A stretch of 64,000 nt of DNA, taken from contig CANJXF010000013.1 in NCBI GenBank assembly GCA_947478865.1, positions 1,462 through 65,461 of the forward strand, in the 5' to 3' direction. Shown in pieces: positions 9,969 through 60,424 of the stretch (positions are counted from its first letter, which is position 1; every line of letters begins with the position of its first letter). The notes beneath the pieces are model-generated. The model worked only from the letters and a program-made list of their open reading frames with translations, ran no database searches and was not told where the DNA came from. Source of the DNA: Verrucomicrobiales bacterium. GTDB lineage: Bacteria > Verrucomicrobiota > Verrucomicrobiia > Limisphaerales > CANJXF01. The translations under genes were made by a program, and so were the position numbers.

Positions 9969-11384
9969 TTAGGCGAGAATACCCTTTACCACATGACCAG
10001 CGACATCGGTCAATCGGTAGTCGCGACTGGTATGCCTATAGGTCAGCCGCTCGTGGTCAAAGCCCAGCAGGTGCAGAATGGTCGCGTGGAAATCATGCAC
10101 GTGGACAGGGTCCTTCGCGACGTTAATTCCGTAATCGTCCGAAGCGCCATATACGGTTCCAGGCTTCACACCGGCCCCAGCCAACCAGGAGGAAAAAACC
10201 CAGTGATGATGCTCGCGACCTTTCGCCTTCTCCGCTTCTACAAACGGCGTGCGGCCAAATTCTGTGGTCCAGACCACAAGGGTATCATCCAATAGGCCGC
10301 GTTGTTTCAGGTCGCGAAGAAGACCGGCGATCGCCTGGTCCACGTTCTTTGCCAAAGGGGTATGGGTAAGCATGTCACCGTGTGCATCCCAGTTATCGGA
10401 CGAGCCGGAATCAATTAACTCCACAAACCGCACACCTTGTTCCACGAGCCGCCTGGCCATCAGACATTGCCAGCCAAAGCCGCTCGTCTGCCCTCGCTTG
10501 AGGCCGTAGAGGTCCAGGGTGGCGTCGCTTTCCTTGGCGAGGTCAAAAACATGCGGCACCTCCATCTGCATGCCGAAGGCGGTTTCAAAGGATTTGACGC
10601 GCGCTTGAAGGAGCGGGTCATCTGAACGGGTGGTGAGATGACGTTGATTCATCCGGGCCATCACACCGAGTTCCATTTCCTGCAACTTTTGGGAGGCGGC
10701 GCGGCGCTGGACATTGGCGATGGGTTCCGCGCCGGGCACGACGAGCGTTCCCTGATGCGCGCCCGGCAGAAAATCGCTTCCCCACACCTGCCCACCTGCA
10801 TAAGGCGATTTCGGCGCTATGACCACGAAGGAAGGCAGGTTGCGATTCACCGTCCCCAGCCCGTAGCTGACCCAAGAACCAATGCTGGGCCGAGCGAAGG
10901 TGAATGAACCCGTATGCATCCCGAGGGTGGCTTCGTAGTGATTGGTGTGATCCGACTTCATCGAGCGAATCACGCAGAGATCATCAGCACAACCAGCCAT
11001 GTGCGGAAAAAGTGAACTGACCTCGATTCCGGATTGGCCATTCCGCGTGAACTCCCACTGCGGTCGTTTGAGGAACATTTTGAAGTCACCTTTGCGGCCT
11101 TGATACTCGTTGACGGAAGTCGTCTTGCCCGCGTCGGCAAAGAGCTTCGGTTTCGGGTCAAAGGAGTCCACGTGCGAAACGCCACCGCTCATGTAGAGAA
11201 AGATGACGCGTTTGGCTTTCGGCGGGAAATGCGATGGCTTAGGAGCCAGGGGATCCATGCTGACCGCAGGCACAGCCTCATCGGCCAGGAGCTGGGTGAG
11301 GAGGTTGGGCAAAAGGATTGAACCGCCCACCATGGAGCGGAGAAATCCGCGCCGGGAATAATCGAATTGGCAGTCAGGTTTCAT
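9969..11384 (-). CDS. DUF1501 domain-containing protein (sulfatase-fold, Tat-type signal)
   Basis: SRRGFLRSMVGGS Tat-like N-terminus. Family-typical C-terminus ERLTYRHTSRDYRLTDVAGHVVKGILA. Starts 11 nt after the stop of the DUF1553 gene. Confidence 0.85.
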   Translation of the reverse strand: MKPDCQFDYSRRGFLRSMVGGSILLPNLLTQLLADEAVPAVSMDPLAPKPSHFPPKAKRVIFLYMSGGVSHVDSFDPKPKLFADAGKTTSVNEYQGRKGDFKMFLKRPQWEFTRNGQSGIEVSSLFPHMAGCADDLCVIRSMKSDHTNHYEATLGMHTGSFTFARPSIGSWVSYGLGTVNRNLPSFVVIAPKSPYAGGQVWGSDFLPGAHQGTLVVPGAEPIANVQRRAASQKLQEMELGVMARMNQRHLTTRSDDPLLQARVKSFETAFGMQMEVPHVFDLAKESDATLDLYGLKRGQTSGFGWQCLMARRLVEQGVRFVELIDSGSSDNWDAHGDMLTHTPLAKNVDQAIAGLLRDLKQRGLLDDTLVVWTTEFGRTPFVEAEKAKGREHHHWVFSSWLAGAGVKPGTVYGASDDYGINVAKDPVHVHDFHATILHLLGFDHERLTYRHTSRDYRLTDVAGHVVKGILA

Positions 11385-11394
11385 AGCGATGATT

Positions 11395-14300
11395 TCAGTC
11401 CATGTGGAGGAATTCGTTGCTGCCGAAGAGCGAGCGGACGTAGGCCGTGAGGGCGGCGGGTTCGGCATTGGTTTGCCCGGCCGCCGTGAGCTCAGCCCGG
11501 TAGGCAGCAAGAAATTCGGTGGCCTCGGAACGCTCCGGTTCAGTAGGCGACCGCCCGGTGGTCAGGCGCCAAGCAAGTTCAACCTGCTGCGCCTCGCCCG
11601 GAAAGGTGGAGCGAAGGCGGCTGGCGCATCTTTCAGCCTTCTCATGGACGAACGATGAATTGAGGAAATAGAGCGCCTGGGTCGGCACGGTGGTCGTGCG
11701 GCGATCCGCAGTGGTGGCGTTTGGATCCGGCCCATCGAACAAGGCAAGGAACGGGTGACGTTTAATACGTTGGGTCATTAAGTAAACGCTGCGCTGGTTG
11801 TGGTCGTAAACGGCGCTGAAGGGGCCGTGCTGGGTATAGCTCGAGGTGACCGGCGAAGGAAACGGATGTCCGCGCCCCGGGCTTGGGTCGAGTTCACCGC
11901 TAATGGCGAGGATGGCGTCCCGGAGTTCCTCGGCGCTGAGGCGGCGACGCGTGAAGAAAGAGTATTCCGTATTCAGTGGTTCACCATTGGATTGGCCCGT
12001 AACCGTTGAAGTCCGATTACTGGCCGCTGAATATTGCCCGGCCTGCTGATAGGTTGCGCTCAACATGATCAACCGATGCATTGCCTTGATGGACCAACCG
12101 CTTTGCATGAATTGGGTTGCCAAGTGGTCTAGTAATTCCGGATGCGTAGGTGCCTGGCCGCGCACGCCAAAATCGTTTGGTGTAGCGACGAGGGCGCGGC
12201 CGAAATGATATTGCCAGAGCCGGTTAACCATGACACGGGCCGTGAGCGGGTTGTCGGCCCGGGTCAGCCAATGCGCAAGCTCAAGCCTGCCACTACCATC
12301 GGTGTTGGCGGGCAACGGTCCGCCACCGAGGGCTTTGATGAAACCGCGCGGGATTTCCTCACCCGGTTGATCTGGTTCGCCCCGCAGTTGCAGACGCGCG
12401 TTCTGGGGTGTCCCGTCCACCACGCCGTAGGTCATTTCACACGGGCCATCGATGAGCAGAGCCGTGAGTTCCTTGGTGTATTTGGCAACCTCATCGCTCA
12501 GCGCCGCAAGCTGCTTTCGCAGTTCCACCACGCGGGCGTGCCGCGATTCGCGTTCAGCCTCTGTCTCCGCCAGCCCAGGCGCAGTCAATGGCGGAAACGC
12601 AGAGTCCCGGAACATAAAATTATCGGTATCCAACGCGGGCCGAACCCCGGGCCGGTGGCCGCGCCCGTCGATGTAGGTATAGTCGATCGTGCCATCCCAG
12701 CCCGCCACGAACGCTCCCTCGAAGGAGGTATTTCCTGCCGGAGTGGCGAGGTTTCCGGTGTAGGTTTTCTCCTTGAGATTGAGGGTGAGCTGGACCTGAT
12801 GCCACTCGCCGGGCCGCAATCGGGCGACGGCATCGTAGGTGGCGCCGGAATGCGTGAAAAACTCGCTGCCGTTGAACTGCAACTCCACCGCAGTCGAACT
12901 GCCACTGCCATGGCCAATGTAAAACCGCCACGAACCTTCCGCACCCGCCTCCGGTTTGTCGCAGCGAAAATCAAACGACACAAACAACAGGTTGGTGCGG
13001 GCCGCTAAAAATGGGACGGCGAACGTCAGCCCAAACCCATCATATTCGCTGCGACTTGGCATGTGCAGGCCAAGCTTTCCAGCGGGGAAAACATTGCGAA
13101 AAGGGCTTTGGGCGGCGGTGCTGACCTTGACCACGCTATTCGGTCCGGGGTTCCACGGCAGGGCTGGAGGCGTTCCGTCTGCTTGCCACTCGATGTCTCC
13201 GTCCAACGCGGTCAACCTCTGCAACTCCGCGTTCATTACTTCCAGATTGGGCTGGCCGGAGGTGGCCGGGAGAGTCGGCGGCGTGGTTGAGACGATCGGG
13301 ATGGGTTCTGACTGAACGCCGAAGTTATCGATTTCGAGGACCGGAAGCACGGTGCCCGCGCGGCCACCGGAGTCCAGTTGCACGTGATTGATCGCGCCCG
13401 ACCATCCAGCTGCGAATGGCTTATTGGAGAAAGTGATTAGGCTGCCCGGCTGGCCGATTCTGCCGGAAAAACTGCGATGCTCCAAATCGAGGTCCAACTG
13501 CAGGTTGTTCCACTCGTGCGGCTTCAACCCGGCGAGCGGCTCGCTTTGCCCTCCGGTGCGGGTAAAGACTCCTTCCGCGGAGATGAGCAATTCGACCGCC
13601 GGCAAACCCTCTTTCGCTCCGATCCAGAATCGATGTGATCCTTTCGCTCCGGCCTCCGGCGTCGCAGGTCGGAAATCGAGATTCACATGCAGCACGTGGC
13701 CGGTTTTCTGCGCGGGTGGCAGAGAGAACGATTGCGCCAGACGATAATCCTTGTCGCCCCCAGCCAGGTTGGCGCCGAATTTCCCGAGCGGATAAAGATT
13801 CTTGAACGGGCTCTGGGCCGCAGTCGTCACGCTGATTTTTCCCTCCCCGAGCCACGGCGGAACGATCACGCCGTAACTTCCACCAGCGGCGTCCTTCTGA
13901 ATTTCAAAGTCACCATCCAGATCATGGAGGGAACGAAAAACCGCCGCGGGCACCGGCTGTTTCTGCCGGGCAATCTTCTCTGAAAGCACCGCCACCTGCT
14001 GGTCATACTCGCGCCACTTCGGCTTTGATTCCCCCGCTGGCAGCAATGGAACCATGGCCCGCAACTTGCCTTTTTGTTCCGAGCCCGGGAAGGCGTAGCG
14101 GGTGCTCGCGAATATACCATAAAGCGCATAGTAATCCCTCATCGAGATCGGGTCGAACTTGTGATCATGGCAACGCGCGCAGCCCAGGCTCAGGCCGAGA
14201 ACGGTTTGCCCCAAGGTGTCGAGGGTATCCTGAATCGTCAGGTGATGATAATTCTCCGAATCAAATCCGAACCGGCGTGAGATTGCGATGAAGCCGGTGG

Positions 14301-15285
14301 CTGTAACCCTCTCGGCGAAGCGTTCGCGCGGACCTTGTTCCGCCAGGAGGTCGCCGGCGATCTGTTCGCGCACAAACTCGTCGTAAGGCTTGTCGGCATT
14401 GAAGGCATCGATCACGTAGTTCCGATAACGCCAAGCCAACCCAACGGGATAATCAGCCGTGTCGCCAGCGGTATCGGCATAGCGAACGATGTCCAGCCAA
14501 TGCCGTCCCCAGCGCTCGCCGTAGTGGGGTGAACTCAGGAGGCGCTCGACCAGCTTGGCGAAAGCGTTCGTCGAACGATCCGCCACGAATGCATCGATCT
14601 CCTCGGGCTTTGGCGGGAGGCCGGTAAGATCGAAAGTGGCCCGCCGGATCAGCGTTCGCTTGTCTGCCAAGGCGGAGGGTTGAAGACCTCGTCCCTCGAC
14701 CTTCGCGAGGATGAACGGATCGATGGAGGTCACCGGCCACGCCGTGTCCTTGACGGCCGGTGGAGCAGGATTCTTGATCGGCTCAAAGGCCCAGGGTCGG
14801 GGCGGGGCAAGCTTGTGACCCGCCGGTGTTTCAGGATAGGGCGCCCCCATCTTGACCCACTGGACCAAGTCGGCGATGACAGGGTCCGAAAGTTTCTTTC
14901 CACCATCCTTGTTCGGAGGCATCCGCAAATCCTTGTCCTCGTAACGCACGGCCTGGATCAACCGGCTCTGGTCCGGCTGCCCCGCAACGACGATGACTCC
15001 ATCCGTTCCGCCTTTGAGAAAATCTTCCTTCGTATCCAGCTTGAGCGTACCCCGGACCTTCTTCGCGTCGGCGCTGTGACAGGGGTAACAGTGCTCGACG
15101 AAAACGGGGCGGATCCGGTTCTCGAAGAACGCAAGCCCCGCCGCGTCGGATTGGGCCTGGGCCGCAGGACTCGAAATCGACCAGGCAACGAGCGCTACCG
15201 CGAGAGATAAGGCCTCGAAACGAGCAGCCGTGACCCGGCAAAGGGTCACTCGCAAGGCAAGGCAGCTTGAGTTGGCTTTACGCAT
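11395..15285 (-). CDS. PSCyt1/DUF1549/DUF1553 (PSD1) domain protein with two inserted LamG-like modules
   Basis: CYPCHS heme-type motif within FFENRIRPVFVEHCYPCHSADAKK (PSCyt1). RRATFDLTGLPP (DUF1549). CARCHDHKFDPISMRDYYALYGIF (DUF1553). 1296 aa. Confidence 0.85.
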   Translation of the reverse strand: MRKANSSCLALRVTLCRVTAARFEALSLAVALVAWSISSPAAQAQSDAAGLAFFENRIRPVFVEHCYPCHSADAKKVRGTLKLDTKEDFLKGGTDGVIVVAGQPDQSRLIQAVRYEDKDLRMPPNKDGGKKLSDPVIADLVQWVKMGAPYPETPAGHKLAPPRPWAFEPIKNPAPPAVKDTAWPVTSIDPFILAKVEGRGLQPSALADKRTLIRRATFDLTGLPPKPEEIDAFVADRSTNAFAKLVERLLSSPHYGERWGRHWLDIVRYADTAGDTADYPVGLAWRYRNYVIDAFNADKPYDEFVREQIAGDLLAEQGPRERFAERVTATGFIAISRRFGFDSENYHHLTIQDTLDTLGQTVLGLSLGCARCHDHKFDPISMRDYYALYGIFASTRYAFPGSEQKGKLRAMVPLLPAGESKPKWREYDQQVAVLSEKIARQKQPVPAAVFRSLHDLDGDFEIQKDAAGGSYGVIVPPWLGEGKISVTTAAQSPFKNLYPLGKFGANLAGGDKDYRLAQSFSLPPAQKTGHVLHVNLDFRPATPEAGAKGSHRFWIGAKEGLPAVELLISAEGVFTRTGGQSEPLAGLKPHEWNNLQLDLDLEHRSFSGRIGQPGSLITFSNKPFAAGWSGAINHVQLDSGGRAGTVLPVLEIDNFGVQSEPIPIVSTTPPTLPATSGQPNLEVMNAELQRLTALDGDIEWQADGTPPALPWNPGPNSVVKVSTAAQSPFRNVFPAGKLGLHMPSRSEYDGFGLTFAVPFLAARTNLLFVSFDFRCDKPEAGAEGSWRFYIGHGSGSSTAVELQFNGSEFFTHSGATYDAVARLRPGEWHQVQLTLNLKEKTYTGNLATPAGNTSFEGAFVAGWDGTIDYTYIDGRGHRPGVRPALDTDNFMFRDSAFPPLTAPGLAETEAERESRHARVVELRKQLAALSDEVAKYTKELTALLIDGPCEMTYGVVDGTPQNARLQLRGEPDQPGEEIPRGFIKALGGGPLPANTDGSGRLELAHWLTRADNPLTARVMVNRLWQYHFGRALVATPNDFGVRGQAPTHPELLDHLATQFMQSGWSIKAMHRLIMLSATYQQAGQYSAASNRTSTVTGQSNGEPLNTEYSFFTRRRLSAEELRDAILAISGELDPSPGRGHPFPSPVTSSYTQHGPFSAVYDHNQRSVYLMTQRIKRHPFLALFDGPDPNATTADRRTTTVPTQALYFLNSSFVHEKAERCASRLRSTFPGEAQQVELAWRLTTGRSPTEPERSEATEFLAAYRAELTAAGQTNAEPAALTAYVRSLFGSNEFLHMD

Positions 15286-17340: not shown

Positions 17341-18816
17341 TTATTGCAGTTTGAGCGGCATCTGGAGAACGACGCCGTACAAGTCGGCGAGAGTGCGCCC
17401 AGTTCCTTGAGCACGAAGGTTTGGGCCGAATTGAAAGGTTGCCGCCGCATCGAAATTTCGGAGCATCATGCAATAGGTGTTGTTGGCCATGATGCCCAGC
17501 AGGTCGCCATTCTTGCTGAAAACAAAATCACCCCGCGAAGGGTTGAACTTCCCGAAAATTCCTTTCACCACGTTATGATCGAGTTTGATGTAACCGGGCA
17601 TGGCCACATCAATTTCAAATCGGCATTCGCCGTAATAATCTTCCGTCGCGCCGACCAGGACCGCGTCCTGAAATTTAAACGGGATGGGCGACGCGCGGTA
17701 AATTTTTCCACCAAGCCGATGCGCCTCTGCCGCGGTGACAGGCATGAAAAGAATTCGTGGATCCTGCAAGTGAAAGGACAAGGAGTGGATCGGAAGCGAA
17801 TCCACATTTCGCACGATGGTGCCGGTGAGTTTTTCCCATTCGACGCCGGGATTCCAGAACGTGAACGGCGTGTCCTGCACGTGGCACAATGCGAAGGTGT
17901 TCGTGCCATCGGTGACGAGAATACTTTGGATTTCCTTGCGCTTGGTGGATTCCCCCACAAACAAGCCGGCTCGCGTGGCACTGAGGCGCGCCTCAACCCG
18001 GTTGGTAAGAAACTCTTCAAAAATCGTGTTTGGCGTGAGGGGACGGTTGTCGCGAATTTCCTGGGTTAATTCCGTGGAGCGTGCCGCCAAAGTTTTGACC
18101 CCTTCCGCCAACTTGGCTTTCTCCGCGCGCTCGATTATCACCTGCTCCTGCATCCTGACGGCCTGTTCCGCAGCGTGCCGTTTCTCGACCTGGGCAACCT
18201 GAAGTTCGCCGGCCAAGCGCTGGCGTTCGTTGAGGACCATCTGGTTGCTTTGCGAGAGAAGGGCCATTTGTTTCTGAACCGCGGCCGCTTCCTCCGCGCG
18301 CTTCCGCAGTTCAGCCTCCATTTGGGCCAGTTTTTCTTTCGAGATTAACGCGTCTGTGGAACTGTTCTTGAGCTGCTGGCTCAAGGTTTGCAAATTGGTT
18401 TGCGCAGCGGCGAATTGCTTCTGCAAAGCCGTCTGCTGCTGTTGGAGCTGTGCTGATTCCTGTTGGCGCGACTCGATGGTTTGCTGAAAATTTTTCGCCT
18501 GCTGCTCAAATTTTTGCGCTTGGGATTCGAGCGCCTGCTGGAGGTTTTTCGCCTGCTTTTCGCGTTCGCCCGCCGTTTGGCGGGTCGCCGCAAGATCGTT
18601 CATCAACAAATCGCGCTGCTGTTTTTCCTCATCCAAGGCCAAGCGCATTACGGCGGCCAGATCCTTTCCACTCGCGGCGGCGTTATTCGTCGCAAGGGTT
18701 GTCTGCGCCTGCGGCACCGTGCCTTCCTCGGCGATTTTGTTGATGTCCACCGTCGAAAACGCCAGCAGGCTGACCAACAAGAAATCGCAAATAAGAATCA
18801 GAATGCTGCGATTCAT
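17341..18816 (-). CDS. Single-pass membrane protein: ExbD/TolR-like TM helix with Asp, long Gln-rich coiled coil, C-terminal chymotrypsin-fold-like domain lacking Ser
   Basis: N-terminus MNRSILILICDFLLVSLLAF. About aa 55-265 are Q/A/K/E heptad-like. C-terminal ALCHV ... FNPSRGDFVFSKNGDLLGIMAN. Start overlaps the upstream stop (ATGA). Confidence 0.5.
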   Translation of the reverse strand: MNRSILILICDFLLVSLLAFSTVDINKIAEEGTVPQAQTTLATNNAAASGKDLAAVMRLALDEEKQQRDLLMNDLAATRQTAGEREKQAKNLQQALESQAQKFEQQAKNFQQTIESRQQESAQLQQQQTALQKQFAAAQTNLQTLSQQLKNSSTDALISKEKLAQMEAELRKRAEEAAAVQKQMALLSQSNQMVLNERQRLAGELQVAQVEKRHAAEQAVRMQEQVIIERAEKAKLAEGVKTLAARSTELTQEIRDNRPLTPNTIFEEFLTNRVEARLSATRAGLFVGESTKRKEIQSILVTDGTNTFALCHVQDTPFTFWNPGVEWEKLTGTIVRNVDSLPIHSLSFHLQDPRILFMPVTAAEAHRLGGKIYRASPIPFKFQDAVLVGATEDYYGECRFEIDVAMPGYIKLDHNVVKGIFGKFNPSRGDFVFSKNGDLLGIMANNTYCMMLRNFDAAATFQFGPNLRAQGTGRTLADLYGVVLQMPLKLQ

Positions 18817-20528
18817 AGCGGCGCGGCGAGCCGGTGTTCGGTGGAGGGCGACGTTGAGAGATTTTTTTCCACTTCCGCTTCAAGCAGTAACTTCCGCCGC
18901 AGCGGGCGCAGATGAAATATCTTGAACACCGAAACGAAGATCACGCCAAAGGAAGTCGACGAATACGCTGCCATCAGGCTGGGCTTGATGATGCCCATCG
19001 AGACCAGAATCAGGGAAATAATCGTTCCGGCAAAACCGAGATACAGACCCGCATCGAAGAGATGCTCTTCGTTTTCGAGCAGCTTTAGCTTCATCTGCGC
19101 CGGAAAAGTTTGCCGGCGGATTTCCGCCAGTTTGACAAGGCAGGCGACGTAGATCAGCGCTTGGAGGACGAAAAACAACAACAGGGTTAATAAACTTAAT
19201 TGATTCATAATGGATCGATTAGCACCGACGTTTTCAGCCGAAATGGCACTGCTCACCATGGGCAACTGCAGCCGAATGGGAAACTCCACATTCTGACTTT
19301 CCAAAGCGAGAAACGGCTCGCTCAAGAGTAACACAACCAGCAGAAAACCCATCCCAAACAATATCTCGCGGGCGACGTGAAACCCGCGCACCTGAAACGC
19401 TCGCTCCGGGATCGGCACGGGCGGCCGCGCAAAATGCATCGCCAGCGCCGACAAAAACCCTGCCAGCAAATATAAAAAACATTTCAGCCCCCACGCAATC
19501 TGGGGCATTCGCAACGGTAGATAGACCAGCGCGCCAGACAGTGCATTCAAATTTCCTGGGAAGTGCGAAACATAAAGGCGCTGGCTGCGCTGCAACAGTT
19601 CATTCACCCCACCCGCGCCAAAGTGGAGACTGGCAGTCAAATCCTTTGGGCCGGTTTGGCCGAACTTCATCAGAAAGCCGGCTGCGGCGGCGGGTTTCCC
19701 GGAAAGTTGGACGGCTGAGAACAGCGTTGGCAATTGCGCGTCAGCTCGGCGCACGAGGTTCGCCTGAAGACGGAGCGTTTCTGGATCGTCGATCTTTTCG
19801 ATGAACGAAACGAGTTGTCCGTAGTTGAATCTCTGGCCGAGCGACATGACATCGATGAGAATTTGCTCAATGGGTTGAGAATCTCCGCCGCGAAATGCAG
19901 CCGTGCCCGCTGCAGAAATGGCATTTACGAAACCCGGAGCCAGCTTTTGTCCTTCAACCATCAGACCGCAGAGCGCGAGCGCGGCATCGAAGGCTTGTCC
20001 CGACGATGATTGCGATGGCGAAAAAAGAACCGTGTTCGTCAGCGTCCGGCAGCGCAGCAGCTCTTGCACGACAGGCGACCGCGAACCCCGCAAGAACTGG
20101 AGCGCGTTCTCGCGATTTTCCGATCGAATTAGAAGGTCGGTAATCGGTTGAGTTTTGTGCAGCGAAGCGGCAAGCGGGGCTGCGCCTGAAGTTTTTTTCT
20201 CGAATTCCAGCAATGGTTTCAGTCCCGGCTCCATGCCCAGAACGGACACTGCCGGATTCGCCCTGGCGGCATTGGTAATCGCAGCGGAAAGTTTTTCGTA
20301 CCCCGGAATTTTTTCCAGTTGGGCGGCCTGCAAGAGCAACGTTGCCGCGCCATATTTTTTGTCAGCGACAAGCGTGAGACCCCGATCGATCAATCCAGAT
20401 GTGCCCCGCCCTGCTTGCTGAAGAACCTGTGCATCGACCGCGCGCAGGTGAATCGGCATCAGCCAACTGACCAGGAACGCCGCCAAAGCGCCGATCAAGC
20501 AAAGCGTAAATAGAACCCAGCGTTTCAT
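18813..20528 (-). CDS. Polytopic membrane protein with ExbB/TolQ/MotA-like C-terminal TM module and a ~320-aa N-terminal extracytoplasmic domain
   Basis: Six hydrophobic segments. The last two carry GLYLGFAGTIISL and AAYSSTSFGVIFVSVF, comparable to the ExbB motifs FVGLFGTVWGI and EALLATAIGLVAAIP. Confidence 0.5.
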   Translation of the reverse strand: MKRWVLFTLCLIGALAAFLVSWLMPIHLRAVDAQVLQQAGRGTSGLIDRGLTLVADKKYGAATLLLQAAQLEKIPGYEKLSAAITNAARANPAVSVLGMEPGLKPLLEFEKKTSGAAPLAASLHKTQPITDLLIRSENRENALQFLRGSRSPVVQELLRCRTLTNTVLFSPSQSSSGQAFDAALALCGLMVEGQKLAPGFVNAISAAGTAAFRGGDSQPIEQILIDVMSLGQRFNYGQLVSFIEKIDDPETLRLQANLVRRADAQLPTLFSAVQLSGKPAAAAGFLMKFGQTGPKDLTASLHFGAGGVNELLQRSQRLYVSHFPGNLNALSGALVYLPLRMPQIAWGLKCFLYLLAGFLSALAMHFARPPVPIPERAFQVRGFHVAREILFGMGFLLVVLLLSEPFLALESQNVEFPIRLQLPMVSSAISAENVGANRSIMNQLSLLTLLLFFVLQALIYVACLVKLAEIRRQTFPAQMKLKLLENEEHLFDAGLYLGFAGTIISLILVSMGIIKPSLMAAYSSTSFGVIFVSVFKIFHLRPLRRKLLLEAEVEKNLSTSPSTEHRLAAPL

Positions 20529-20801
20529 TTTAATAGGTCTTACAGTGATGCAAAGCGCCTCTTTATCCAGCGATTATTTTGCGACACGCTTTGCCCATGG
20601 GCGCTCGCCAGCTTATCTTAGATGCCGGGCTGGAGTGGAATATTCGCCTTTCCCCGAAATTTCTTAAACACCGGGATCAGGGCACCCAATCCGCCCGGGA
20701 TTCTTTACGCCTGAACGACATCAAGATGCGCGATTGATTGCTGTGCGACTTGACTCTGCAGCATTTCTGAACCTTTCTGTCTGAAAAAATATTCCAATCC
20801 A

Positions 20802-30481: not shown

Positions 30482-32620
30482 TCAAGGCGCGTCTACAGTG
30501 CGGTAAAAGCGCAGCGCAAACTCCGCTGCATCTTGATCCGTGAATTCCACCTGGCCGTTGCGATTCTCGGCTTCGCCTAAGAATGTCCAGGTCGTCAGAT
30601 TTGTGGACGCCTCAATTGCATATCGGACTCCCGGCTGACCGGCGAAGGCCAGTCGGAACGCCCCTCCTGGCAACCGCTCGAAGGAAGTTAGATTGAATTG
30701 CGAAACCGCAGCCGTCGAATTGCGAATCGGCACGGCAGCAACAGCGGGTTTTGAAGGTAAAACGGGCGAGAGCCTCGACGGTGAAACCAGGAAGCTGCGA
30801 TATTGCCCTCCCTTCTTGCCACTGGCCAGAATCTGCCCGCGATCGTTGATTGCAGTCGCACTATCCAAATGCCAGCCGGAGTTGGTGCCAATGAGGTCAT
30901 TCAAATCCACCATCTCGCCACCGCGTTTCAAGAACGCAAAATTTCGGTTCTCCATTGTTGTGGCATAACCGACGATCTCTCCGGCATTATTGATACTCGT
31001 GGCTCGGCTCGTTTTCCATCCCACCACATTCAAGTCGAGCAACTCGCCCTTCTCCCAGACAATGGCATGAGCCTGATCCCAGGCGGCACCCGCAGGATTC
31101 GCCCAACCCACCACCGTTCCCTGGTCGTTGATCGCATTCACGCTTGCTCGCGGTCCACCGAGAGTTTTGAGATCAATGATTTTCCCGTTTTGCCAGAGAA
31201 AAACTCCCCAGCCATTATCACGCTGAATGGACTGTCCGGCGATCTGCCCACGGTTGTTCATCGCTTTTGCGTAACAGATGGTGCCATCGCCGCGCAAACC
31301 GAAGTAGGAAATCTGCTCCTGACTAAAAAGGAACGAACGCTGGCTGTCGCCCTTGATCATGAGCCTGCCGGTGACTTGCGACCGGTTGTTGATGTCGACA
31401 CTCGGCGCGTATGAAATATTTCCCTCAGTCCCGAGCTTCGCAAATCCGTCAATCACCCCAAGGTCTGTCACATTGCTTCCTTGCAACATGAAAACCCGGC
31501 GCTGTTCGTTGGCAAGCACCACTCCAACGATCTCTCCGCGATCATTGATACCAGAAGCGATGGCTTTCGAACCACCCAAAGTTCCCAGGTCGATTACATT
31601 TCCGTGTTCCCATAAAAATGCGTGAACCAAACCATTGGAGCCGTCCATCCATCCCACGACCTGCCCTTGATTGTTGAGACCCGTGACGTGACTTGAAATG
31701 AACCCGGGCAGTGCGCCAATGTTCGCAAGCAAATAGTTCGTGAACGGGGTTTCCTGTTGCGGTTGTTCAGAAACCGCTACCTCCGGCGATAGGCGAGTTG
31801 TTTGTGAATCCGCGCTTCCAGGGTTTTTGGATTCCGCGTTCTGCGCCAGTAGGATTATTAGCGCTGCCGAAGTCAGCACAGCAAGACCGGCGGCAGTCAC
31901 AACCTTCACTTTTTTCCACGCCATAATATTCAACACTCCTTTCACAATCGCCAAAGTTGAACCACCCGCCACCGCACCTTTCGCCGCCGCTGCCATAGCC
32001 GTCACCACCAAGCCTGTCGGTGCGGCCTGCACTGAGTTCGCCGACACTGCGCCCGCGATGAGCGTCGTCGTCAACGTCACGCCGCGTTTGCTGAAAATCT
32101 TCCGCAACTTCTCCAGCGCCCGGTTCACCCGCATTTTAGCGGCGTCTTCACTCGCGCCCAAGGCAGCGCCGACTTCGCCCAAAGTTTTTTTCTCGAAGAA
32201 CCGCAGCACAATGGCGTGGCGGTCGCGCTCACCAAGTTTGCCCAGCGCGTCGTCGAGCAGCGGGGCGATGCGCGGCCACGTCTCCTCGGATTGAGGTTCC
32301 TCCAGTTGCGATTGCATAAACGCCTCCTGTTCCCGGCGGGCGCGGCGAAACTCGGTTCGCCGATAGTTCGCCGCCGTCAATCGCGCGGTCTGATAGAGCC
32401 AGCCGGAGAGAATGGTTTTCGGGCCGAGCGATGCCGCCTTGAGCGCGAGGATGACGAACACCGCCTGCGTAATCTCCTCGGCAGCGTGCGGATTGCCCGT
32501 CTGCCGCAGTGCGATGGAATAGACGAGATTCACGTGTCGCGTCACGAGCGCGGCAAAGGCGGCTTCGGAATTTTCCCGCGCGAATTCGGCAAGCAATTGG
32601 CGATCATCCGGTCCGGTCAT
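30482..32620 (-). CDS. ECF-type sigma-70 factor fused to a TM segment and extracellular HAF-repeat domain
   Basis: Region 2 (FAALVTRHVNLVYSIALRQTGNPHAAEEITQAVF) and region 4 (RHAIVLRFFEKKTLGEVGAALGASEDAAKMRVNRALEKLR). Hydrophobic VVTAAGLAVLTSAALIILLA. Repeats of the type HAFLWEHGNVIDLGTLGG. Confidence 0.7.
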   Translation of the reverse strand: MTGPDDRQLLAEFARENSEAAFAALVTRHVNLVYSIALRQTGNPHAAEEITQAVFVILALKAASLGPKTILSGWLYQTARLTAANYRRTEFRRARREQEAFMQSQLEEPQSEETWPRIAPLLDDALGKLGERDRHAIVLRFFEKKTLGEVGAALGASEDAAKMRVNRALEKLRKIFSKRGVTLTTTLIAGAVSANSVQAAPTGLVVTAMAAAAKGAVAGGSTLAIVKGVLNIMAWKKVKVVTAAGLAVLTSAALIILLAQNAESKNPGSADSQTTRLSPEVAVSEQPQQETPFTNYLLANIGALPGFISSHVTGLNNQGQVVGWMDGSNGLVHAFLWEHGNVIDLGTLGGSKAIASGINDRGEIVGVVLANEQRRVFMLQGSNVTDLGVIDGFAKLGTEGNISYAPSVDINNRSQVTGRLMIKGDSQRSFLFSQEQISYFGLRGDGTICYAKAMNNRGQIAGQSIQRDNGWGVFLWQNGKIIDLKTLGGPRASVNAINDQGTVVGWANPAGAAWDQAHAIVWEKGELLDLNVVGWKTSRATSINNAGEIVGYATTMENRNFAFLKRGGEMVDLNDLIGTNSGWHLDSATAINDRGQILASGKKGGQYRSFLVSPSRLSPVLPSKPAVAAVPIRNSTAAVSQFNLTSFERLPGGAFRLAFAGQPGVRYAIEASTNLTTWTFLGEAENRNGQVEFTDQDAAEFALRFYRTVDAP

Positions 32621-34621: not shown

Positions 34622-34747
34622 ACACGAGCGGCAGTAATTTGTGGGCGACGGCGGAGTTAGTAAACTTCAAATACAACTGCGAAAGTTTTAGATGAAATCG
34701 TGCTGGTTGGACTGCGGTTGTCCCAGCCCAAATGTTAGTCTCCTCCC

Positions 34748-35527
34748 ATGAATGAACGAACAGCGCACGATCTTAACGAGCTGGAGGGTTACGTCGAACT
34801 GGGGATGCAAAGGGAGTCCCTTCGCCTTGCCCGAAAGCTGCTGAAACAACCGGGATTAACTCCGCAAATTTTTGCGGACGCTATGCACGCTATTCTGGTT
34901 CACGCCGATCAATTGACTCGTTGGCGTCCGTTGGTCGAGACGGTGCATTCGAAATTTTCCGCGAAACAAAAGCGGGCCGCTCGAAAATCCATGTTTCATT
35001 TCTACGTTTCGTTGAACGAATTTGGTATGGCGTTTCTCTACATGCCGCTCAAGCCGCGCGCGGCGGACGACCTTCTCTTCTGCATGTGGACGCTGCTGGA
35101 TCTTCGTTACATGGATGCGTGTGACGACATGGCCGAACGAATCAAAAGAATTTGGAATAAGCCGAAATCGGAATTTGAAATCAGTTGCGTGCTGGAAGCG
35201 ATCGGAAGCTACGCCGCGCAAAACGGCTGGTTTGAAGTGGCGGAAAGTGTCTGGGAGCAGGCGATCACCCACGAATTGTTTGAGGCGAACGCGTGGACGG
35301 GATTGATCAATATCGAAATCGCAAAAGCACATGCGCGCGTCGGTAGCGCCGTGAATCGCATTTCCGCGCGCAAACCGGATTACAATCCGATGCTTCCGCG
35401 AAATGAAGAAAAGCTGAAAATAGCTTCCCTAAAAGAACTTGGCCGCATACAACGAGAACTCAACCACGTGCTTCCAAAGAACGAGCTTTGGCGGTTTGGG
35501 AAATTAGAAAATCATAATTCAAAGTGA
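34748..35527 (+). CDS. Hypothetical alpha-helical repeat protein
   Basis: 259-aa ORF with no recognised motif. Its stop overlaps the GTG start of the next gene (GTGA at 35524-35527). Confidence 0.5.
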   Translation: MNERTAHDLNELEGYVELGMQRESLRLARKLLKQPGLTPQIFADAMHAILVHADQLTRWRPLVETVHSKFSAKQKRAARKSMFHFYVSLNEFGMAFLYMPLKPRAADDLLFCMWTLLDLRYMDACDDMAERIKRIWNKPKSEFEISCVLEAIGSYAAQNGWFEVAESVWEQAITHELFEANAWTGLINIEIAKAHARVGSAVNRISARKPDYNPMLPRNEEKLKIASLKELGRIQRELNHVLPKNELWRFGKLENHNSK

Positions 35528-36696
35528 ATCTGCCAAAGTCATTAAGAAACATTTACTGGTCTTCTCCGAATGGCTCTTTTGAAGTAACGGAGAGATTCAA
35601 AAGTTTACTCAAACGTTTTGTTCAACTCCCGAAAACAACGAGACCAAAAACTTTTTTCGAAATTTCTGGAAATCCTCATTACGAGATTTATTGCAGTAAT
35701 TTCCTGAAGTTCTGGTTTTCTCAAGGTGCCGATCACGGTTTTGGCGACAACATTTTGTTTTCGTTATTGTCTTTGGTGGAACCCAATTTAGAGCGCGAGT
35801 CTTTGAAAAATGCCGAGGTTTTCCGTGAAGACCTAACCAAGAATGATGGTCAATTAGATCTTGTCATTAGAAGCGAGGATTTAGTCGTTGGCATTGAAAA
35901 CAAGATTTATGCGAGCCTTCAGAACAATCTCGAAGATTATTCACAACACTTAGCAAAGTCGGGAAAACGGTGTTTAAAAATTATTCTTTGTCTAAATGAA
36001 CTCCGACTTGAAGAAAAAGAGAAGGCCAAGAAATCAGGCTTCAAAATTGTAACATACGATCAGTTTTTTAAGCATCTTTTGAATTCCATTGGTGTGAAAA
36101 TGACAACTGCCAACATGCATTATGTCGGCCTTCTGCTCGATTTTGTTGCAACGATGGAGAATCTAAAACGAGGAACTCATATGAACGTAGAATTGCTTGC
36201 TTTTTTTAAAGAATACGAAGAAGAAATCCGCCAACTTTGTTTCGATGCCGTGCCCGAATTAACCTCTGATTTAAAGGCGAAGGGAGAACCGGTCAGAGAT
36301 CTTATGAAAGAAAGAAAACTGCCAAATGGAATAAGCCAATTAAAAGGAGAAGAATGTTCGGACGCTTTAGGCAGAAAGGTTTTTTCCTATGCTGTTTGGT
36401 GCAAGGCTGACCTTGGCGGGTCTCACTCGATGGGCCTTGAAGCCACGGTTCAACTAAATGGGTGGAAAATTGTAGCGTGGGCCGATGAAGAGTCTCGTAT
36501 TCGAGTTGATGAGTTCATTAGAAAGATAGGCATTCCGTATAAAAAAGAACGCCAGGAAAATCGGGATGAGATTTGGATTTTCAAAAAGTTTCCATACGAA
36601 GCAAATCACGAAGTAGTTGCAAAGGAATTTCAAGAACTTGTCGAGAAAGTGAGCAGCCGACTTCCAAAGAAAAAAGGAAACCTAAAGCGGCGCTAG
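35524..36696 (+). CDS. PD-(D/E)XK nuclease family protein (PDDEXK_4-like)
   Basis: TFFEISGNPHYEIYCSNFLKFWFSQGADHGFGD and GQLDLVIRSEDLVVGIENKIYA (D...E-x-K core). The sequence is visibly AT-richer than its flanks. Confidence 0.65.
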   Translation: MNLPKSLRNIYWSSPNGSFEVTERFKSLLKRFVQLPKTTRPKTFFEISGNPHYEIYCSNFLKFWFSQGADHGFGDNILFSLLSLVEPNLERESLKNAEVFREDLTKNDGQLDLVIRSEDLVVGIENKIYASLQNNLEDYSQHLAKSGKRCLKIILCLNELRLEEKEKAKKSGFKIVTYDQFFKHLLNSIGVKMTTANMHYVGLLLDFVATMENLKRGTHMNVELLAFFKEYEEEIRQLCFDAVPELTSDLKAKGEPVRDLMKERKLPNGISQLKGEECSDALGRKVFSYAVWCKADLGGSHSMGLEATVQLNGWKIVAWADEESRIRVDEFIRKIGIPYKKERQENRDEIWIFKKFPYEANHEVVAKEFQELVEKVSSRLPKKKGNLKRR

Positions 36697-36813
36697 GAAC
36701 AATTCTTCGTTCTCCGAATTCGCCACACCGACAGAAGCGTGTAAAAAAGCACGGTGAACGCGTAAGCCAGAATTCCTAACCGATCGCGTAAGGGTTTTCC
36801 GCACGACTGAAGA
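36694..36813 (-). pseudogene. Decayed copy of the 3' end of the 37522-38043 membrane-protein gene
   Basis: 36714-36813 aligns with 37537-37637. The first ~65 nt differ at 2 positions, followed by a 1-nt deletion. The copy would encode ...LAYAFTVLFYTLLSVWRIRRTKNCS*. Confidence 0.6.
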
Positions 36814-36874
36814 AAAGACGAATCATACGAGCAACTCCTTCACAAGTAATTAGTCAACCGGTATTGGGAGGAAT

Positions 36875-37330
36875 ATGAAAATGAAAATACGAGGTAGTAA
36901 AGCCACATGTATTCAACTTGTTGCAGGCAGCAAGGGGCCGGATTGGCGCCTAGAAGATCTCAACGCAAGCCCGCTTGGCGAATCTGACGCTTATTTTGGA
37001 GTTTATCTTCCACCAAAAGCCTTATATCCAACTTCGAGGATTATTTCGAAAAAGAACGTTAGATCGAAAGACGCGGTTGGATGGGTTGGATACGATAAAC
37101 CTCCTGGGAATAACCGCGAACAAGAAGCGTCAGTTTATGTGTATTGTGAGACGAAACGCGCTGCAATGCAGATCGAAAGGTTTATGGACTCGAAGGCGGG
37201 TTATAAAACGCGGCTTTTTGTTGAGGGAGCGACTTTCAAATTAAGGATTTCGGCAAATCGAGAGCACGGCAACGATCTCCAGTGGTTCCAAAACACGATA
37301 CATAGGCTCAAGAACGTGCCGCGTTATTGA
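36875..37330 (+). CDS. Hypothetical protein (orphan, 151 aa)
   Basis: ATG preceded by gggagg at SD distance. No recognised motif. Lies between the two repeat copies. Confidence 0.45.
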   Translation: MKMKIRGSKATCIQLVAGSKGPDWRLEDLNASPLGESDAYFGVYLPPKALYPTSRIISKKNVRSKDAVGWVGYDKPPGNNREQEASVYVYCETKRAAMQIERFMDSKAGYKTRLFVEGATFKLRISANREHGNDLQWFQNTIHRLKNVPRY

Positions 37331-37390
37331 TGTGCCTAGCCATAAAGTATCGCAATTGCGATCAGAATCGTCGGTGCGTTCCTCTGTAAC

Positions 37391-37521
37391 TTACGCGAGT
37401 AGTTGTTTCACAACTTTCCCCCAACATCCGTCAGCCAATAATCGCGGCCTTCGAAACGGTAGGTGAGTTTCTCGTGATTCATGCCGAGGCAAGCAAGCAT
37501 CCTCGCGTGGCGTGATGAAAT
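37391..37521 (-). pseudogene. Remnant of the 3' end of a DUF1501 gene, with a 1-nt frameshift in a G-run
   Basis: Translates [32 protein letters not shown], then a frameshift, then KVVKQLLA*. The intact DUF1501 gene at 9969 ends [40 protein letters not shown]. Confidence 0.65.
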
Positions 37522-38043
37522 TTAACGAATTTGTCGCCGAATTCGCCACACCGACAGCAGCGTGTAAAAAAGCACGGTGAACGCGTAAGCAAGAATTCCT
37601 AAACCGATCGCGTAGGGAATTTCTGAACGACTGAAGAGAATTAGCGCACCGCCGACGATTCCGAAGAGAACGGTTTGCGACGCGAGGCAAAAAAGGTAGA
37701 GGCCGATGTGGGTTTCCACGAGTCGCGCCACGTGCCAGTCGCGATACATTTCCTCGCCGAGCGTGCGCATCAGCCAGGCTTGTTGAAAGTTTCTCGCTGC
37801 TACAAGAACACTCGTCGTGGAAATGATGATTGCCATGATCGGATACAGCGCAAACGAGAGGCAAAGCGCGATGTTGACGAGCGCGCCCAGCTTCCATCCC
37901 ATCCGTTTCGCGAGGGGATTTCCTTCGAGAACGAGATTGGGCGTTGCGACCCACGTGCTCAAAAAATCCGATCCCCGGGAAAACAGCAGGAGCGCCAGAA
38001 GAATAAAATAAACACGACTGGCAAAGGGAACAGATTCTTCCAT
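37522..38043 (-). CDS. Small polytopic membrane protein (DUF5658-like by motif)
   Basis: Four to five hydrophobic helices. RGSDFLSTWVATPNLVLEGNPLAKRMG resembles the D..sT...E-NP motif of that family. Confidence 0.55.
   Translation of the reverse strand: MEESVPFASRVYFILLALLLFSRGSDFLSTWVATPNLVLEGNPLAKRMGWKLGALVNIALCLSFALYPIMAIIISTTSVLVAARNFQQAWLMRTLGEEMYRDWHVARLVETHIGLYLFCLASQTVLFGIVGGALILFSRSEIPYAIGLGILAYAFTVLFYTLLSVWRIRRQIR
37537..37637. repeat. Direct repeat copy B (intact gene 3' end), partner of 36714-36813
   Basis: By-eye alignment: ccgaattcgccacaccgacag[c/a]agcgtgtaaaaaagcacggtgaacgcgtaagc[a/c]agaattcctaa... Confidence 0.7.
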
Positions 38044-58400: not shown

Positions 58401-58776
58401 GTGCATTGCCGTCAGCAATAATGTCGGGGGGCAGTGGCTGGTGACGATGGTTTCCCCACGCCATTATTTGCGCGCAAACCACACGGGCACTCCTGCGATG
58501 ATGGCTTTTCTGGACACCAACAACGTGATTTATTGGCGAACATCTTTGCAACAGGTGCAGGTTGCAGGTGATACTGACGTTGGAATTCTGGACGCGGATT
58601 TACCTTCGTCGATTGGCTTTTTGTCAGTAGTGCCGACAAATCTTTCAAATTATTTGCCTACAAATGGCCCGGCGGTTATTCAAGCTATCGGTCTCAATCA
58701 GACTAATATGATTTTCAGCCAACCGATGAAGTTTGGATATCAGGCAGTATCATTAATTAGGAGTAGCCGATGTTAG
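55462..58776 (+). CDS. Giant secreted multidomain protein: LamG, TSP3-like Ca-binding repeats, RCC1 repeats, Ig-like domains, and the first part of a chymotrypsin-fold-like domain
   Basis: Signal peptide. LamG-like IRLWFQPDW...LFIDGNLVA. DTDSDGLTDAYE / DTDNDGIPDGWE. Repeated WG.N.YGQ..VP / GG..H..AL. GSYRVIISTGAGS. RHYLRANH ... DTDVGILD. Confidence 0.7.
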   Translation: MKTSGRASVAVPIFIFGLLFSFSLSTLGKPRSPLPPLPEMAPVLEHIDFNEPLWDGGGKAEFFTTAYGELWESWSGYSLVRGGQSVSPYILPLISDSGKTNLTASQGAIRLWFQPDWTTGSGPGKNARLLEMNVLPSPQMYVNWSLYFSDDGSKLILSGQTGKGAADLLSAEIKWESGASHCLGLNYSEKQTELFIDGNLVAQGGGVLPVSPSVSGLVVGSTIEGTDTASGQFDEITTFGRPLSAAEVSFYYSALKQTAALGPISAAEEAQKAAVAKYRQELQTESESSGAYRVNGGVTNCPTNGPVYITNIFSILTTNGDATVTFDIVGGTNGILYDIFSATNLVGNSITNGAWTWLEQGYTCNSYIYTNQPGTFAFYVLGTPLDTDSDGLTDAYEFLVSKTDSNDSDTDNDGIPDGWEVAHGLNPLVNDASDDPDGDWLTNFQEYQAGSNPHDKMVVAWGENLFGECDVPPGLRDVVAVAGGFNFSMALRSNGTVVVWGQNDYGQTNVPADLTNAASISAWLWYTEALRQDGTVAQWGALVHTVPSSATNLAAISVGYDYAVGLRSNGTLISWGENSYRTNLLAGLTNVAAIATSTDHKVALLSNQTLVAWGLTYSNLGWNLTNVPADLTNVSRIAVGEFHTLALKADGTVGAWGAGGPTNTSENYLGAEQGQSVVPSGLSNVTAIAAGGYHSMALRTDGTIVSWGDLTPGYLQSNYVAIGSGTFHGLAIRSGRLLPLMAKQPSDRIDLAGTNITFTAQGVGLAGVLYQWQLNGTNISGATNSTLTLTNVQAANEGSYRVIISTGAGSVTTSNANFTLVIPPVIVSKTPSTNPLVIYARRFTLSVTATAPGQFDGFPLSYQWKFNGINIIGATASNCTTYALPGTYSVIVSNAAGSTNAAWEVTTTYEGSYIDVGTLAYHLSTNAVSRTNGFTDIASAQMQLTNWTYAEFTETNLGLLTNAVWSTNCWLKGVQGLSATCIAVSNNVGGQWLVTMVSPRHYLRANHTGTPAMMAFLDTNNVIYWRTSLQQVQVAGDTDVGILDADLPSSIGFLSVVPTNLSNYLPTNGPAVIQAIGLNQTNMIFSQPMKFGYQAVSLIRSSRC

Positions 58777-58792
58777 TTGGGAGACCAATGCG

Positions 58793-59050
58793 GTGATTCC
58801 TTTTGGGGTAGGTTCCAATTGGAACATTCCTTTAATTGGTGGAGATTCTTCCCTGCCTGAAAGATTACTGATCAATAACCAATTAGTGTTGATTTCCCAC
58901 AATACTCTTCCGAGCGGCGGGCCCAATTACTCCTTCCAGTTTGACGCGATTAACCTGAAGATGCATTATCTCTCGACGAACCATAGCGTTGGAACAGATT
59001 ATCAACTGACGCCCATTTCTTTGACCAATTGGTCAGTCATTACTCAATAA
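58793..59050 (+). CDS. Detached, frame-shifted continuation of the preceding gene (carries the GDS motif)
   Basis: The +1 frame is open from 58757 (LGVADVSWETNAVIPFG...). Contains IGGDSSLPERLLINNQLVLISH. No independent strong RBS. Confidence 0.45.
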   Translation: MIPFGVGSNWNIPLIGGDSSLPERLLINNQLVLISHNTLPSGGPNYSFQFDAINLKMHYLSTNHSVGTDYQLTPISLTNWSVITQ

Positions 59051-59072
59051 TCACCCAAAACCAAAAGACAAA

Positions 59073-59657: not shown

Positions 59658-59670
59658 AACGCTTGGCCAT
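59571..59670 (+). repeat. PEP-CTERM tail/junction repeat, copy 1
   Basis: 100 nt aligning with 60287-60386, with 9 mismatches counted by eye. A 43-nt core is identical. Spans the stop codon and the next ATG. Confidence 0.85.
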
Positions 59671-59704
59671 TCGTAACCAGATAAAAATCATTAAAGAACT
59701 CAAA

Positions 59705-60373: not shown

Positions 60374-60386
60374 AATATTTGGCCAT
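60287..60386 (+). repeat. PEP-CTERM tail/junction repeat, copy 2
   Basis: See copy 1. Followed by a signal-peptide-like stub, MKYLAIIICFFGVIL. Confidence 0.85.
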
Positions 60387-60424
60387 CATCATCTGCTTTT
60401 TCGGGGTAATTCTGCAACAGGCAA

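Follow-up and report, generated by a model that had tools for sequence, protein, structure and literature searches.

Could a subunit with a membrane-embedded acidic residue carry a protease-like head across the periplasm on a stalk of its own, and be driven from the membrane in the manner of MotB, ExbD or TolR? This question is raised by two adjacent genes, here called A and B, in a 64,000-nucleotide stretch of a Verrucomicrobiales contig (CANJXF010000013.1), referred to in its entirety as the window. A preliminary description of the pair had proposed an undescribed ion-driven motor in which A is an ExbB/TolQ/MotA-like channel subunit and B its ExbD/TolR-like partner. The motor idea held up as the best single reading, resting on architecture and motif logic and not on demonstrated homology. 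A and B may thus constitute a dedicated, autonomous, clade-specific ion-coupled inner-membrane machine whose Asp-bearing subunit itself spans the periplasm, an interpretation to which we give slightly less than an even chance.

A clade-wide module of two coupled genes

The pair and its junction lie in the window as follows.

18813..20528, minus strand: gene A, an open reading frame (ORF) of 571 residues
17341..18816, minus strand: gene B, an ORF of 491 residues
18813..18816, minus strand: ATGA stop/start overlap of A and B (junction ...CCG CTA TGA / ATG AAT CGC)

The four-nucleotide overlap, remarked on from the start and borne out when the junction was read, implies translational coupling of A and B. 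The same two genes, which have no Pfam domain, were called by independent gene callers in several metagenome assemblies. Relatives of A form >1,383 clusters at 90% identity and 797 clusters at 50% identity (E≤1e-3), and those of B form >1,708 clusters at 90% identity; among the A matches listed, most are ~550-600 residues long, and those that are shorter align to just a portion of the profile. Given two families of this size, and motifs that fall among their most conserved positions, the features that first drew attention to the pair go beyond chance.

A scan of one genome per species returned at least 541 stretches encoding A relatives, and the best 80 of these were compared for synteny. Nearly all 80 are labelled Verrucomicrobiota, Verrucomicrobiia, Limisphaerales, Pedosphaera or subdivision 3. 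In 79 of them A is directly followed by a B homolog, the exception being a contig end, and the identical 4-nt overlap recurs in 65 of the 79; the pair is therefore syntenic outside the genome in which it was first seen. No third gene is conserved beside the pair, the next commonest neighbour being present in 14 of 81 loci (the window counted), and no TonB, TolA, Pal, OmpA-like or Zor partner was found nearby, in agreement with the preliminary description. That A and B form an autonomous, translationally coupled, clade-wide two-gene module is firmly established, and the module is specific to Verrucomicrobiota, mainly to Limisphaerales/Pedosphaera-type lineages. In the source records, homologs of both genes are named either "hypothetical protein" or by misnomers driven by the coiled coil, and a full-text literature search found no description of either family.

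Several loci bear labels from elsewhere (Bifidobacteriaceae, Saccharimonadales, Limnocylindrales, Baltobacteraceae, Sulfopaludibacter, Angelobacter and Acidoferrum; loci L014, L019, L048, L073-L075, L077-L079 and L081). Their identity to gene A is 42-56%, the same range as for Verrucomicrobial loci, and they look like mislabelled or contaminated bins of metagenome-assembled genomes rather than true occurrences outside the phylum; the few odd labels among the best 80 stretches originate in automated catalogues of such genomes. At three loci, canonical ExbB/ExbD genes were seen ~6 kb downstream of the pair (L018:14577-15639, L034:14990-15409 and L025:15293-15655), and these are not conserved neighbours overall. 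At one further locus, an ORF matching Escherichia coli MotB (E 5.6e-8) lies ~300 bp upstream of gene A (L012:5901-6692); its position there is probably coincidental.

Architecture of the two proteins

Gene A encodes the following parts, TM denoting a transmembrane helix.

20457..20522, minus strand: TM1, N-terminal anchor, residues ~3-24 (hydropathy and AlphaFold2)
19503..20456, minus strand: periplasmic all-alpha domain, residues 25-342 (AlphaFold2; density of Lys and Arg)
19113..19502, minus strand: TM2-TM4, residues 343-472, with E404, F452 and Q456 100% conserved (AlphaFold2 and conservation)
18894..19100, minus strand: juxtamembrane helix and TM5-loop-TM6 hairpin, residues 477-545, the region of ExbB/TolQ-like motifs

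Hydropathy and the AlphaFold2 model (mean predicted local distance difference test score, pLDDT, 77.8) agree with the architecture first described for the 571-residue protein, namely an N-terminal TM helix, a soluble all-helical domain of ~320 residues and five further TM helices. The later helices were modelled at residues 342-367, 381-409, 443-472, 493-510 and 518-558, the last of which continues beyond the membrane. Across 178 homologs, Lys and Arg together amount to ~0.21 per residue in the N-tail, the TM2-3 loop, the TM4-5 loop and the C-tail, as against ~0.08 per residue in the complementary segments. On the strength of this contrast, positive-inside analysis predicts an N-in/C-in topology with six TM helices and the 320-residue domain in the periplasm. 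This domain was modelled mostly as high-confidence helices, with many 10-residue blocks at pLDDT ≥90, and it may represent an undescribed fold; no relative of it was found in Pfam, by profile search of the PDB or by Foldseek against the PDB, the Foldseek query having been the full-length model, for which sensitivity to the domain alone is uncertain.

Conservation in A is concentrated in the TM4-TM6 module. Ten positions are identical in all 178 sequences (E404, F452, Q456, N486, E487, F491, G498, G501, G528 and R541), and all ten are intramembrane or juxtamembrane. The most conserved part, residues 477-545, has a TM hairpin with many small and hydroxyl residues and reads LLENEE.LFD.GLY.G..GT...S.LMAAYSST.FG, with the family consensus LLENEENLFD.GLYVGLGGTV.SLIL...ASLMAAYSSTLFGI; position 502 is Thr or Ser throughout, and S524 and T525 are conserved in 98% and 89% of sequences, respectively. 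The last two helices had been said to reproduce the ExbB hallmarks with similar spacing. The motifs themselves, G-x-x-G-T and S-T-x-x-G, are present, and their spacing is similar without being equal (23 residues, as against 33 in ExbB and TolQ). Short A members of 196-275 residues were considered as minimal, ExbB-sized versions and rejected, since they look truncated or split: one, on a 980-bp contig, appears to be cut short, and on an 81-kb contig (L171:3021-4828) a 334-residue ORF overlaps the start of a 275-residue member (P0291), where the gene was most likely split by a frameshift error.

B is a bitopic, N-in protein with three parts.

18751..18807, minus strand: TM helix, residues ~4-22, with the Asp11 codon at 18784-18786
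18052..18675, minus strand: heptad coiled-coil stalk, residues ~48-255 (3.5/7 periodicity)
17344..18033, minus strand: trypsin/HtrA-fold head, residues ~262-491 (AlphaFold2 and Foldseek)

Nowhere is B better conserved than in its N-terminal helix, MNRSILILICDFLLVSLLAF. N2, R3, I7, D11, F12, L13, L14, L17 and F20 are identical in 78 of 78 diverse homologs, among which overall identity drops to 44%, and the helix residues are also invariant in 77 close homologs. The membrane Asp pointed out in the preliminary description is accordingly conserved in every ortholog compared, and its codon lies where it had been placed. Invariance of this degree is atypical of a passive anchor or a signal peptide. 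A lipoprotein or cleavable signal peptide was rejected, as Cys10 sits in a poor lipobox nine residues in and the helix is invariant, and so was a relationship to TolA, the phmmer matches (E ~1e-5) being compositional and the helix bearing an Asp instead of the TolA/TonB His motif.

The Gln-, Ala-, Lys- and Glu-rich stretch that follows, at first called heptad-like, is a true heptad coiled coil. Its hydrophobic periodicity peaks at 3.5 and 7, its register is unbroken from residue ~83 to ~255, and its length would be ~30 nm if fully extended. Between the Asp motif and the start of the head, species differ in length from 213 to 318 residues, and 47 of 80 unique sequences fall into one class modulo 7 (213, 220, 227 ... 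276, 318); the other moduli tested gave a mild peak at most (modulo 11). The indels are thus heptad-sized, which preserves the phase from the TM helix to the head. Within the stalk core, d positions are Leu and a positions Leu, Ala, Val or Ile with 8% Asn and 8% Lys, and the e and g positions are polar (Gln/Glu). Such a composition is found more typically in parallel dimers than in trimers, and from its residues the stalk looks dimeric. Nearer the membrane, shortly after the TM helix and a linker, residues 52-68 (window 18613-18663) belong to the N-terminal part of the stalk, whose heptad register is shifted up to a break near Gly83, and contain D52, V56, A60, L61, E64 and R68, all invariant in 77 homologs; this segment could serve as a plug like that of MotB, or the periplasmic domain of A could dock there.

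A protease-like fold had been proposed for the head, and structural comparison upheld it. The C-terminal 242 residues gave a confident, beta-rich AlphaFold2 model (pLDDT 89.9; predicted template modelling score 0.86), for which Foldseek returned Deg2, Deg9, DegS, DegP and HtrA1 with probability 1.0 and E 4e-6 to 7e-4. As modelled, the head is a chymotrypsin-like double beta-barrel of the HtrA/Deg type. No trypsin or PDZ family was found in the window's B or among the families listed for 77 homologs, and B, which ends seven residues past its last modelled helix (residues 472-484), has no PDZ domain.

Residues of the head were mapped with hhalign onto E. coli DegS, DegQ and DegP; these alignments are not significant alone (P 0.08-0.13) and serve only as a residue mapping of the significant fold match, and they agree with the strand order in the model. 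His312 (codon 17881-17883), conserved in 78 of 79 homologs within F-A-L-C-H-V, falls on the catalytic His, I-K-L-D on I-Q-T-D, and Ser427 (codon 17536-17538) on the Ser of G-N-S-G-G-A-L-V-N-x-x-G-E-L-I-G-I in HtrA. Position 427 lies in the motif N-P-S-R-G-D-F-V-F-x-x-x-G-D-L-L-G-I and is Ser in 73, Thr in four and Leu in one of 78 homologs. The canonical catalytic Asp corresponds to the variable residue 344, and the invariant D352 (79 of 79 homologs) lies in the following loop. The head had been thought to lack a nucleophilic Ser, which is probably wrong; it probably keeps the catalytic-type His and Ser and not the canonical Asp position.

A possible ion-coupled machine weighed against its alternatives

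What favours an ion-coupled machine is the combination of several features. Pairing of the two genes is coupled and near-universal, with no third conserved gene, and the parts conserved most strongly are the TM helix of B and the TM4-TM6 module of A. The predicted topology is compatible, with the C-terminus and TM4-5 loop of A and the N-terminus of B in the cytoplasm and a short TM5-6 loop, and the stalk has a dimer-like core and heptad-sized indels. In hhalign comparisons with MotA/ExbB/TolQ, the register is constant and the scores are 25-29, whereas reversed controls reach 9-12 and decoys average 13.8. There is also precedent for Asp-helix proteins fused to a periplasmic head and accompanied by a TolQ-like gene alone (PMC12204202).

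In such a machine, B would dimerise through its stalk, and two of its Asp helices would be enclosed by an A oligomer whose lining is the TM5/TM6 hairpin. There Asp11 would face T502, S524 and T525 of A, as the Asp of MotB, ExbD and TolR faces the Thr ring of MotA, ExbB and TolQ, and ion flow would protonate and deprotonate it, so that B would move, by rotation or pulling, relative to A. Since a separate partner of the TonB/TolA type is missing for B, the stalk itself would carry this movement ~30 nm across the periplasm, where the protease-like heads would be positioned, turned or activated near the outer envelope layers. The periplasmic domain of A could form a collar or stator around the stalk base. 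A more specific version, which we consider unlikely, holds that A and B are a new ion-driven family of the 5:2 type with a stator diverged past the reach of profiles, in which the B dimer is a rigid drive shaft of ~30 nm bearing serine-protease heads for energy-coupled proteolysis or remodelling at the ATP-free outer envelope.

Kinship of A with MotA, ExbB and TolQ was assessed by profile alignment. A homolog search for a reference returned nearly all enterobacterial MotA, and PDB-derived and metagenome-scan sequences were therefore used instead: an 8-member reference of TolQ, ExbB and MotA sequences from E. coli MG1655, PDB entries and one Verrucomicrobial locus, and an 88-member reference from the metagenome scan. 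Shallow profiles gave P ~0.1 in the register proposed earlier. With a diverse A profile, the 8-member reference scored 28-29 (P 2e-4 to 6e-4, probability 29-47%), compared with 11-12 for its reversed controls (P 0.35-0.6 for reversed controls overall) and 24.7 for the best of 62 decoy families against the C-terminal module. The 88-member reference scored 25 (P 1e-3 to 4.5e-3, probability 8-22%) in the same register, and with the full-length A family it ranked second of 62 among decoys (mean 13.8, standard deviation 2.8, maximum 23.8). Throughout, A 495-531 aligned with TolQ 138-185, placing T502 on TolQ T145 and T525 on TolQ T178; a conserved Thr on both candidate pore helices of A is thus present, at the level of motifs only. 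The E. coli strings from which the likeness had first been argued are essentially correct when compared with MG1655 (ExbB ISPFVGLFGTVWGIM...AEALLATAIGLVAAIP, TolR VPLLDVLLVLLLIF, ExbD TPFIDVMLVLLIIF). Regular-expression patterns for the A and B motifs are rare, although they were written after both families had been seen and show rarity only.

A series of results weighs against an ion-driven reading. A of the window has no family match at E≤10 in Pfam, NCBIfam or PADLOC, and the families listed for 88 diverse A homologs at the same threshold do not include MotA_ExbB. The A family profile found no ExbB, TolQ, MotA or PomA chain in the PDB, and a Foldseek search of the PDB with the full-length A model gave nothing below E 0.76. 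B has no significant match to ExbD, TolR or MotB in Pfam, NCBIfam or PADLOC; for it and the families listed for 77 homologs, these databases returned coiled-coil noise only, and the B family profile found only noise in the PDB. The alignment of the start of B with TolR and ExbD, put forward in the preliminary description, does place Asp on Asp, but it spans only 11-12 columns (P 0.04) and decoys did better. Deepening the MotA/ExbB/TolQ reference from 8 to 88 members did not raise the signal for A, the probability going from 29-47% to 8-22%, and one unrelated decoy family outscored that reference. Canonical ExbB and ExbD were found readily in the same genomes with E. coli queries (E 1e-10 and 1e-14), a positive control from which it follows that A and B are not the Ton/Tol motor of these organisms and are at best a very remote relative of it. 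A also lacks the conserved prolines of ExbB, TolQ and MotA and their large cytoplasmic domain, of which it has almost none. A dimer of B would also be at odds with the trimeric state normal for HtrA proteases. Finally, the stoichiometry of A and B, ion conduction and movement are predicted only.

Calibration bears on how the missing profile matches should be read. A MotA/ExbB/TolQ profile searched against the PDB recovered ExbB, TolQ, MotA and PomA chains and no chain named GldL, PorL or ZorA; a ZorA-like chain appeared only at E 0.26, with a Verrucomicrobial ExbB query. GldL, PorL and ZorA, which we take to be present in the PDB set, would in that case lie beyond the reach of such a search, and a miss by A at the sequence level is for this reason not disqualifying. 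The C-terminal module of A keeps a constant register with ExbB, TolQ and MotA and beats its reversed controls, but finds no counterpart by family, PDB-profile or Foldseek search. Taken together, these comparisons argue weakly for kinship with the known motors; homology of A to MotA/ExbB/TolQ is not established, membership having been tested and not demonstrated, and the claim is that the pair may work like these motors, not that it is a member of their family.

The alternative that survives best, though it too seems unlikely, is a protease complex without a motor. In this case, B would be an anchored HtrA-like protease, or a substrate-binding pseudo-protease, on a coiled-coil spacer, and A a polytopic scaffold, sensor or inhibitor acting through its periplasmic domain; the TM Asp and the polar TM residues of A would serve only helix association or a regulatory switch, with no ion-driven work. 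The HtrA fold of the head is the sole statistically solid assignment for the pair, its His312 and Ser427 are conserved, and the profile and fold tests for MotA/ExbB/TolQ and ExbD/TolR were all negative or marginal. The bulk of both proteins is periplasmic, which would suit direct regulation of the head by the A domain, and membrane-anchored HtrA proteases such as DegS exist. Left unexplained are the invariance of nine positions in an anchor helix with a buried Asp and the conservation of the A hairpin, with its G-x-x-G-T and T-x-x-G in ExbB/TolQ register. A dedicated protease would moreover have to do without a PDZ domain, with a variable residue at the canonical catalytic Asp position and with Thr or Leu in place of Ser427 in 5 of 78 homologs.

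The stalk also suggests a passive device, in which a B dimer acts as a rigid periplasmic ruler from the inner membrane (via A) to a peptidoglycan or outer-membrane partner, so that width is set or sensed without energy. A heptad-quantised length of 213-318 residues with continuous register would fit this, as would a head that could be a binding module, its triad being incomplete, and the lack of another conserved partner nearby. Such a tether would need neither an invariant TM Asp nor a 6-TM partner with ten 100%-conserved residues, and conservation of His312 and Ser427 suggests chemistry and not mere binding; we regard it as improbable. A transport system, with A as inner-membrane transporter or channel and B as a membrane-fusion-like periplasmic adaptor to an outer-membrane exit, is very improbable: one B homolog is labelled "AcrA (membrane-fusion protein)" and others "colicin uptake", and a TM helix, coiled coil and beta domain loosely recall adaptors, but these labels stem from coiled-coil composition, the B profile matches are all noise, the beta domain is HtrA-like and not a lipoyl or beta-barrel domain of membrane-fusion proteins, A matches no transporter family, and the neighbourhood lacks a conserved gene for an outer-membrane factor or an ATPase.

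If the motor reading is true, the pair would be one more case in which the MotAB/ExbBD principle has been elaborated independently, after flagella, Ton/Tol, gliding and type IX secretion (T9SS), Zorya and vWA transducers. It would be the first motor whose membrane-embedded ion-binding subunit bears a protease-fold head on a rigid stalk, so that the proton gradient could pay for proteolysis or mechanical work on the distal side of the periplasm. A stator subunit could then diverge past the reach of Pfam and Foldseek, and motor censuses would be incomplete. Even if there is no motor, A and B represent a large, tightly conserved and wholly unannotated family in an abundant soil and freshwater phylum.

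Surroundings of the pair and relation to known systems

The pair is flanked by a convergent sulfatase gene and a divergent beta-propeller/phosphoesterase gene, with PSCyt/PSD, DUF1501, rhodanese, macro-domain and MBL-fold genes farther out, none of which suggests a functional link. Upstream of gene A lies a divergent intergenic region of 273 bp with one candidate signal.

20527..20554, minus strand: weak sigma-70-like promoter match just upstream of gene A

This match agrees at 9 of 12 positions, is not above shuffle expectation and marks the operon boundary only. Elsewhere in the window, a DUF1501 gene is followed by a 1,296-residue PSCyt1/PSCyt2/PSD1 gene (9969-15285, minus strand), an uncharacterised pair that is widespread in Planctomycetes and Verrucomicrobia. 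A 712-residue protein (30482-32620, minus strand) combines ECF-type sigma-70 regions 2 and 4 (residues 25-174) with a long C-terminal extension that matches DUF3466, an unusual sigma-factor fusion. The G+C content falls to 0.47-0.48 at ~34700-38000, as against 0.54-0.60 elsewhere, between anthranilate-synthase-like and hisI-like genes; this stretch, which contains a PD-(D/E)XK nuclease and three ORFs with no Pfam match, could be a small island that was acquired. G+C is low again (0.46) at 58000-60400, where two adjacent small PEP-CTERM-tailed proteins are encoded at 59073-59657 and 59654-60373.

Compared with MotAB, ExbBD and TolQR, the pair has the same A-then-B gene order with a stop/start overlap (that of E. 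coli motA/motB is also 4 nt), and B is likewise N-in and bitopic with an invariant TM Asp; the string D-x-L-L-V-x-L-L-x-F is common to B and TolR. As in ExbB, TolQ and MotA, the C-terminal end of A is a TM hairpin that bears G-x-x-G-T and T-x-x-G, its loop in the periplasm being short and the C-terminal helix lying in the cytoplasm. Unlike them, A has six TM helices and a 320-residue periplasmic domain, and its inter-motif loop is 10 residues shorter than in ExbB and TolQ. B differs from ExbD, TolR and MotB in having neither an ExbD/TolR nor an OmpA-like domain, its periplasmic part being a coiled coil plus HtrA fold, and the pair has no TonB, TolA or rotor partner.

Among HtrA/Deg proteases (DegS, DegP, Deg2 and HtrA1; MEROPS S1C), the trypsin-like two-barrel fold is that of the B head, His in x-H-V and Ser in x-x-S-x-G of B align with the catalytic His and Ser, and DegS is anchored by an N-terminal TM helix, as B is. 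B stands apart in lacking a sequence-profile match and a PDZ domain, in its variable catalytic Asp position, in N-P-S-R-G in place of G-N-S-G-G and in the 200-residue coiled coil between anchor and protease domain. Zorya ZorAB resembles the pair in joining a MotAB-like core to a very long coiled coil that relays a signal or torque away from the membrane, but in Zorya it is ZorA that carries the long tail, which lies in the cytoplasm, ZorB includes a domain for peptidoglycan binding, and ZorC/D come next; no ZorC/D-like extra neighbours are conserved beside A-B. The PADLOC ZorA and ZorB models gave no match on A, and on B only ZorA matches in the coiled coil (E ~0.1).

GldLM and PorLM are alike in that the B-type subunit itself spans the periplasm as an elongated dimer, and in that the A-type subunit is absent from the MotA/ExbB/TolQ profile matches in the PDB. 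This likeness to GldLM is one of architecture alone: GldM is built of stacked globular domains whereas B is a coiled coil, the charged TM pair is arranged differently (Glu in GldL, Arg in GldM), and GldLM/PorLM is a Bacteroidota system with partner T9SS genes.

Stators of the GIT type with added domains have been described (PMC12505986), and the TPH-vWA "monomeric force transducers", reported in Verrucomicrobia, have an Asp-bearing transpore helix (TPH) fused directly to a periplasmic effector and pair with a tolQ-like gene only, with no tolR or exbD (PMC12204202). They are proposed to work by rotating the effector-bearing subunit directly inside the pentamer (PMC12204202). Unlike A-B, their genes often occur as heterologous pairs; their partner is a recognisable TolQ homolog, whereas A is missed by profiles, and their vWA head sits on a disordered linker, whereas that of B is HtrA-like and sits on a rigid coiled coil (PMC12204202). 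The pair has their basic plan in common with them: a helix with an Asp joined to a head in the periplasm, and only one gene of the A type as partner.

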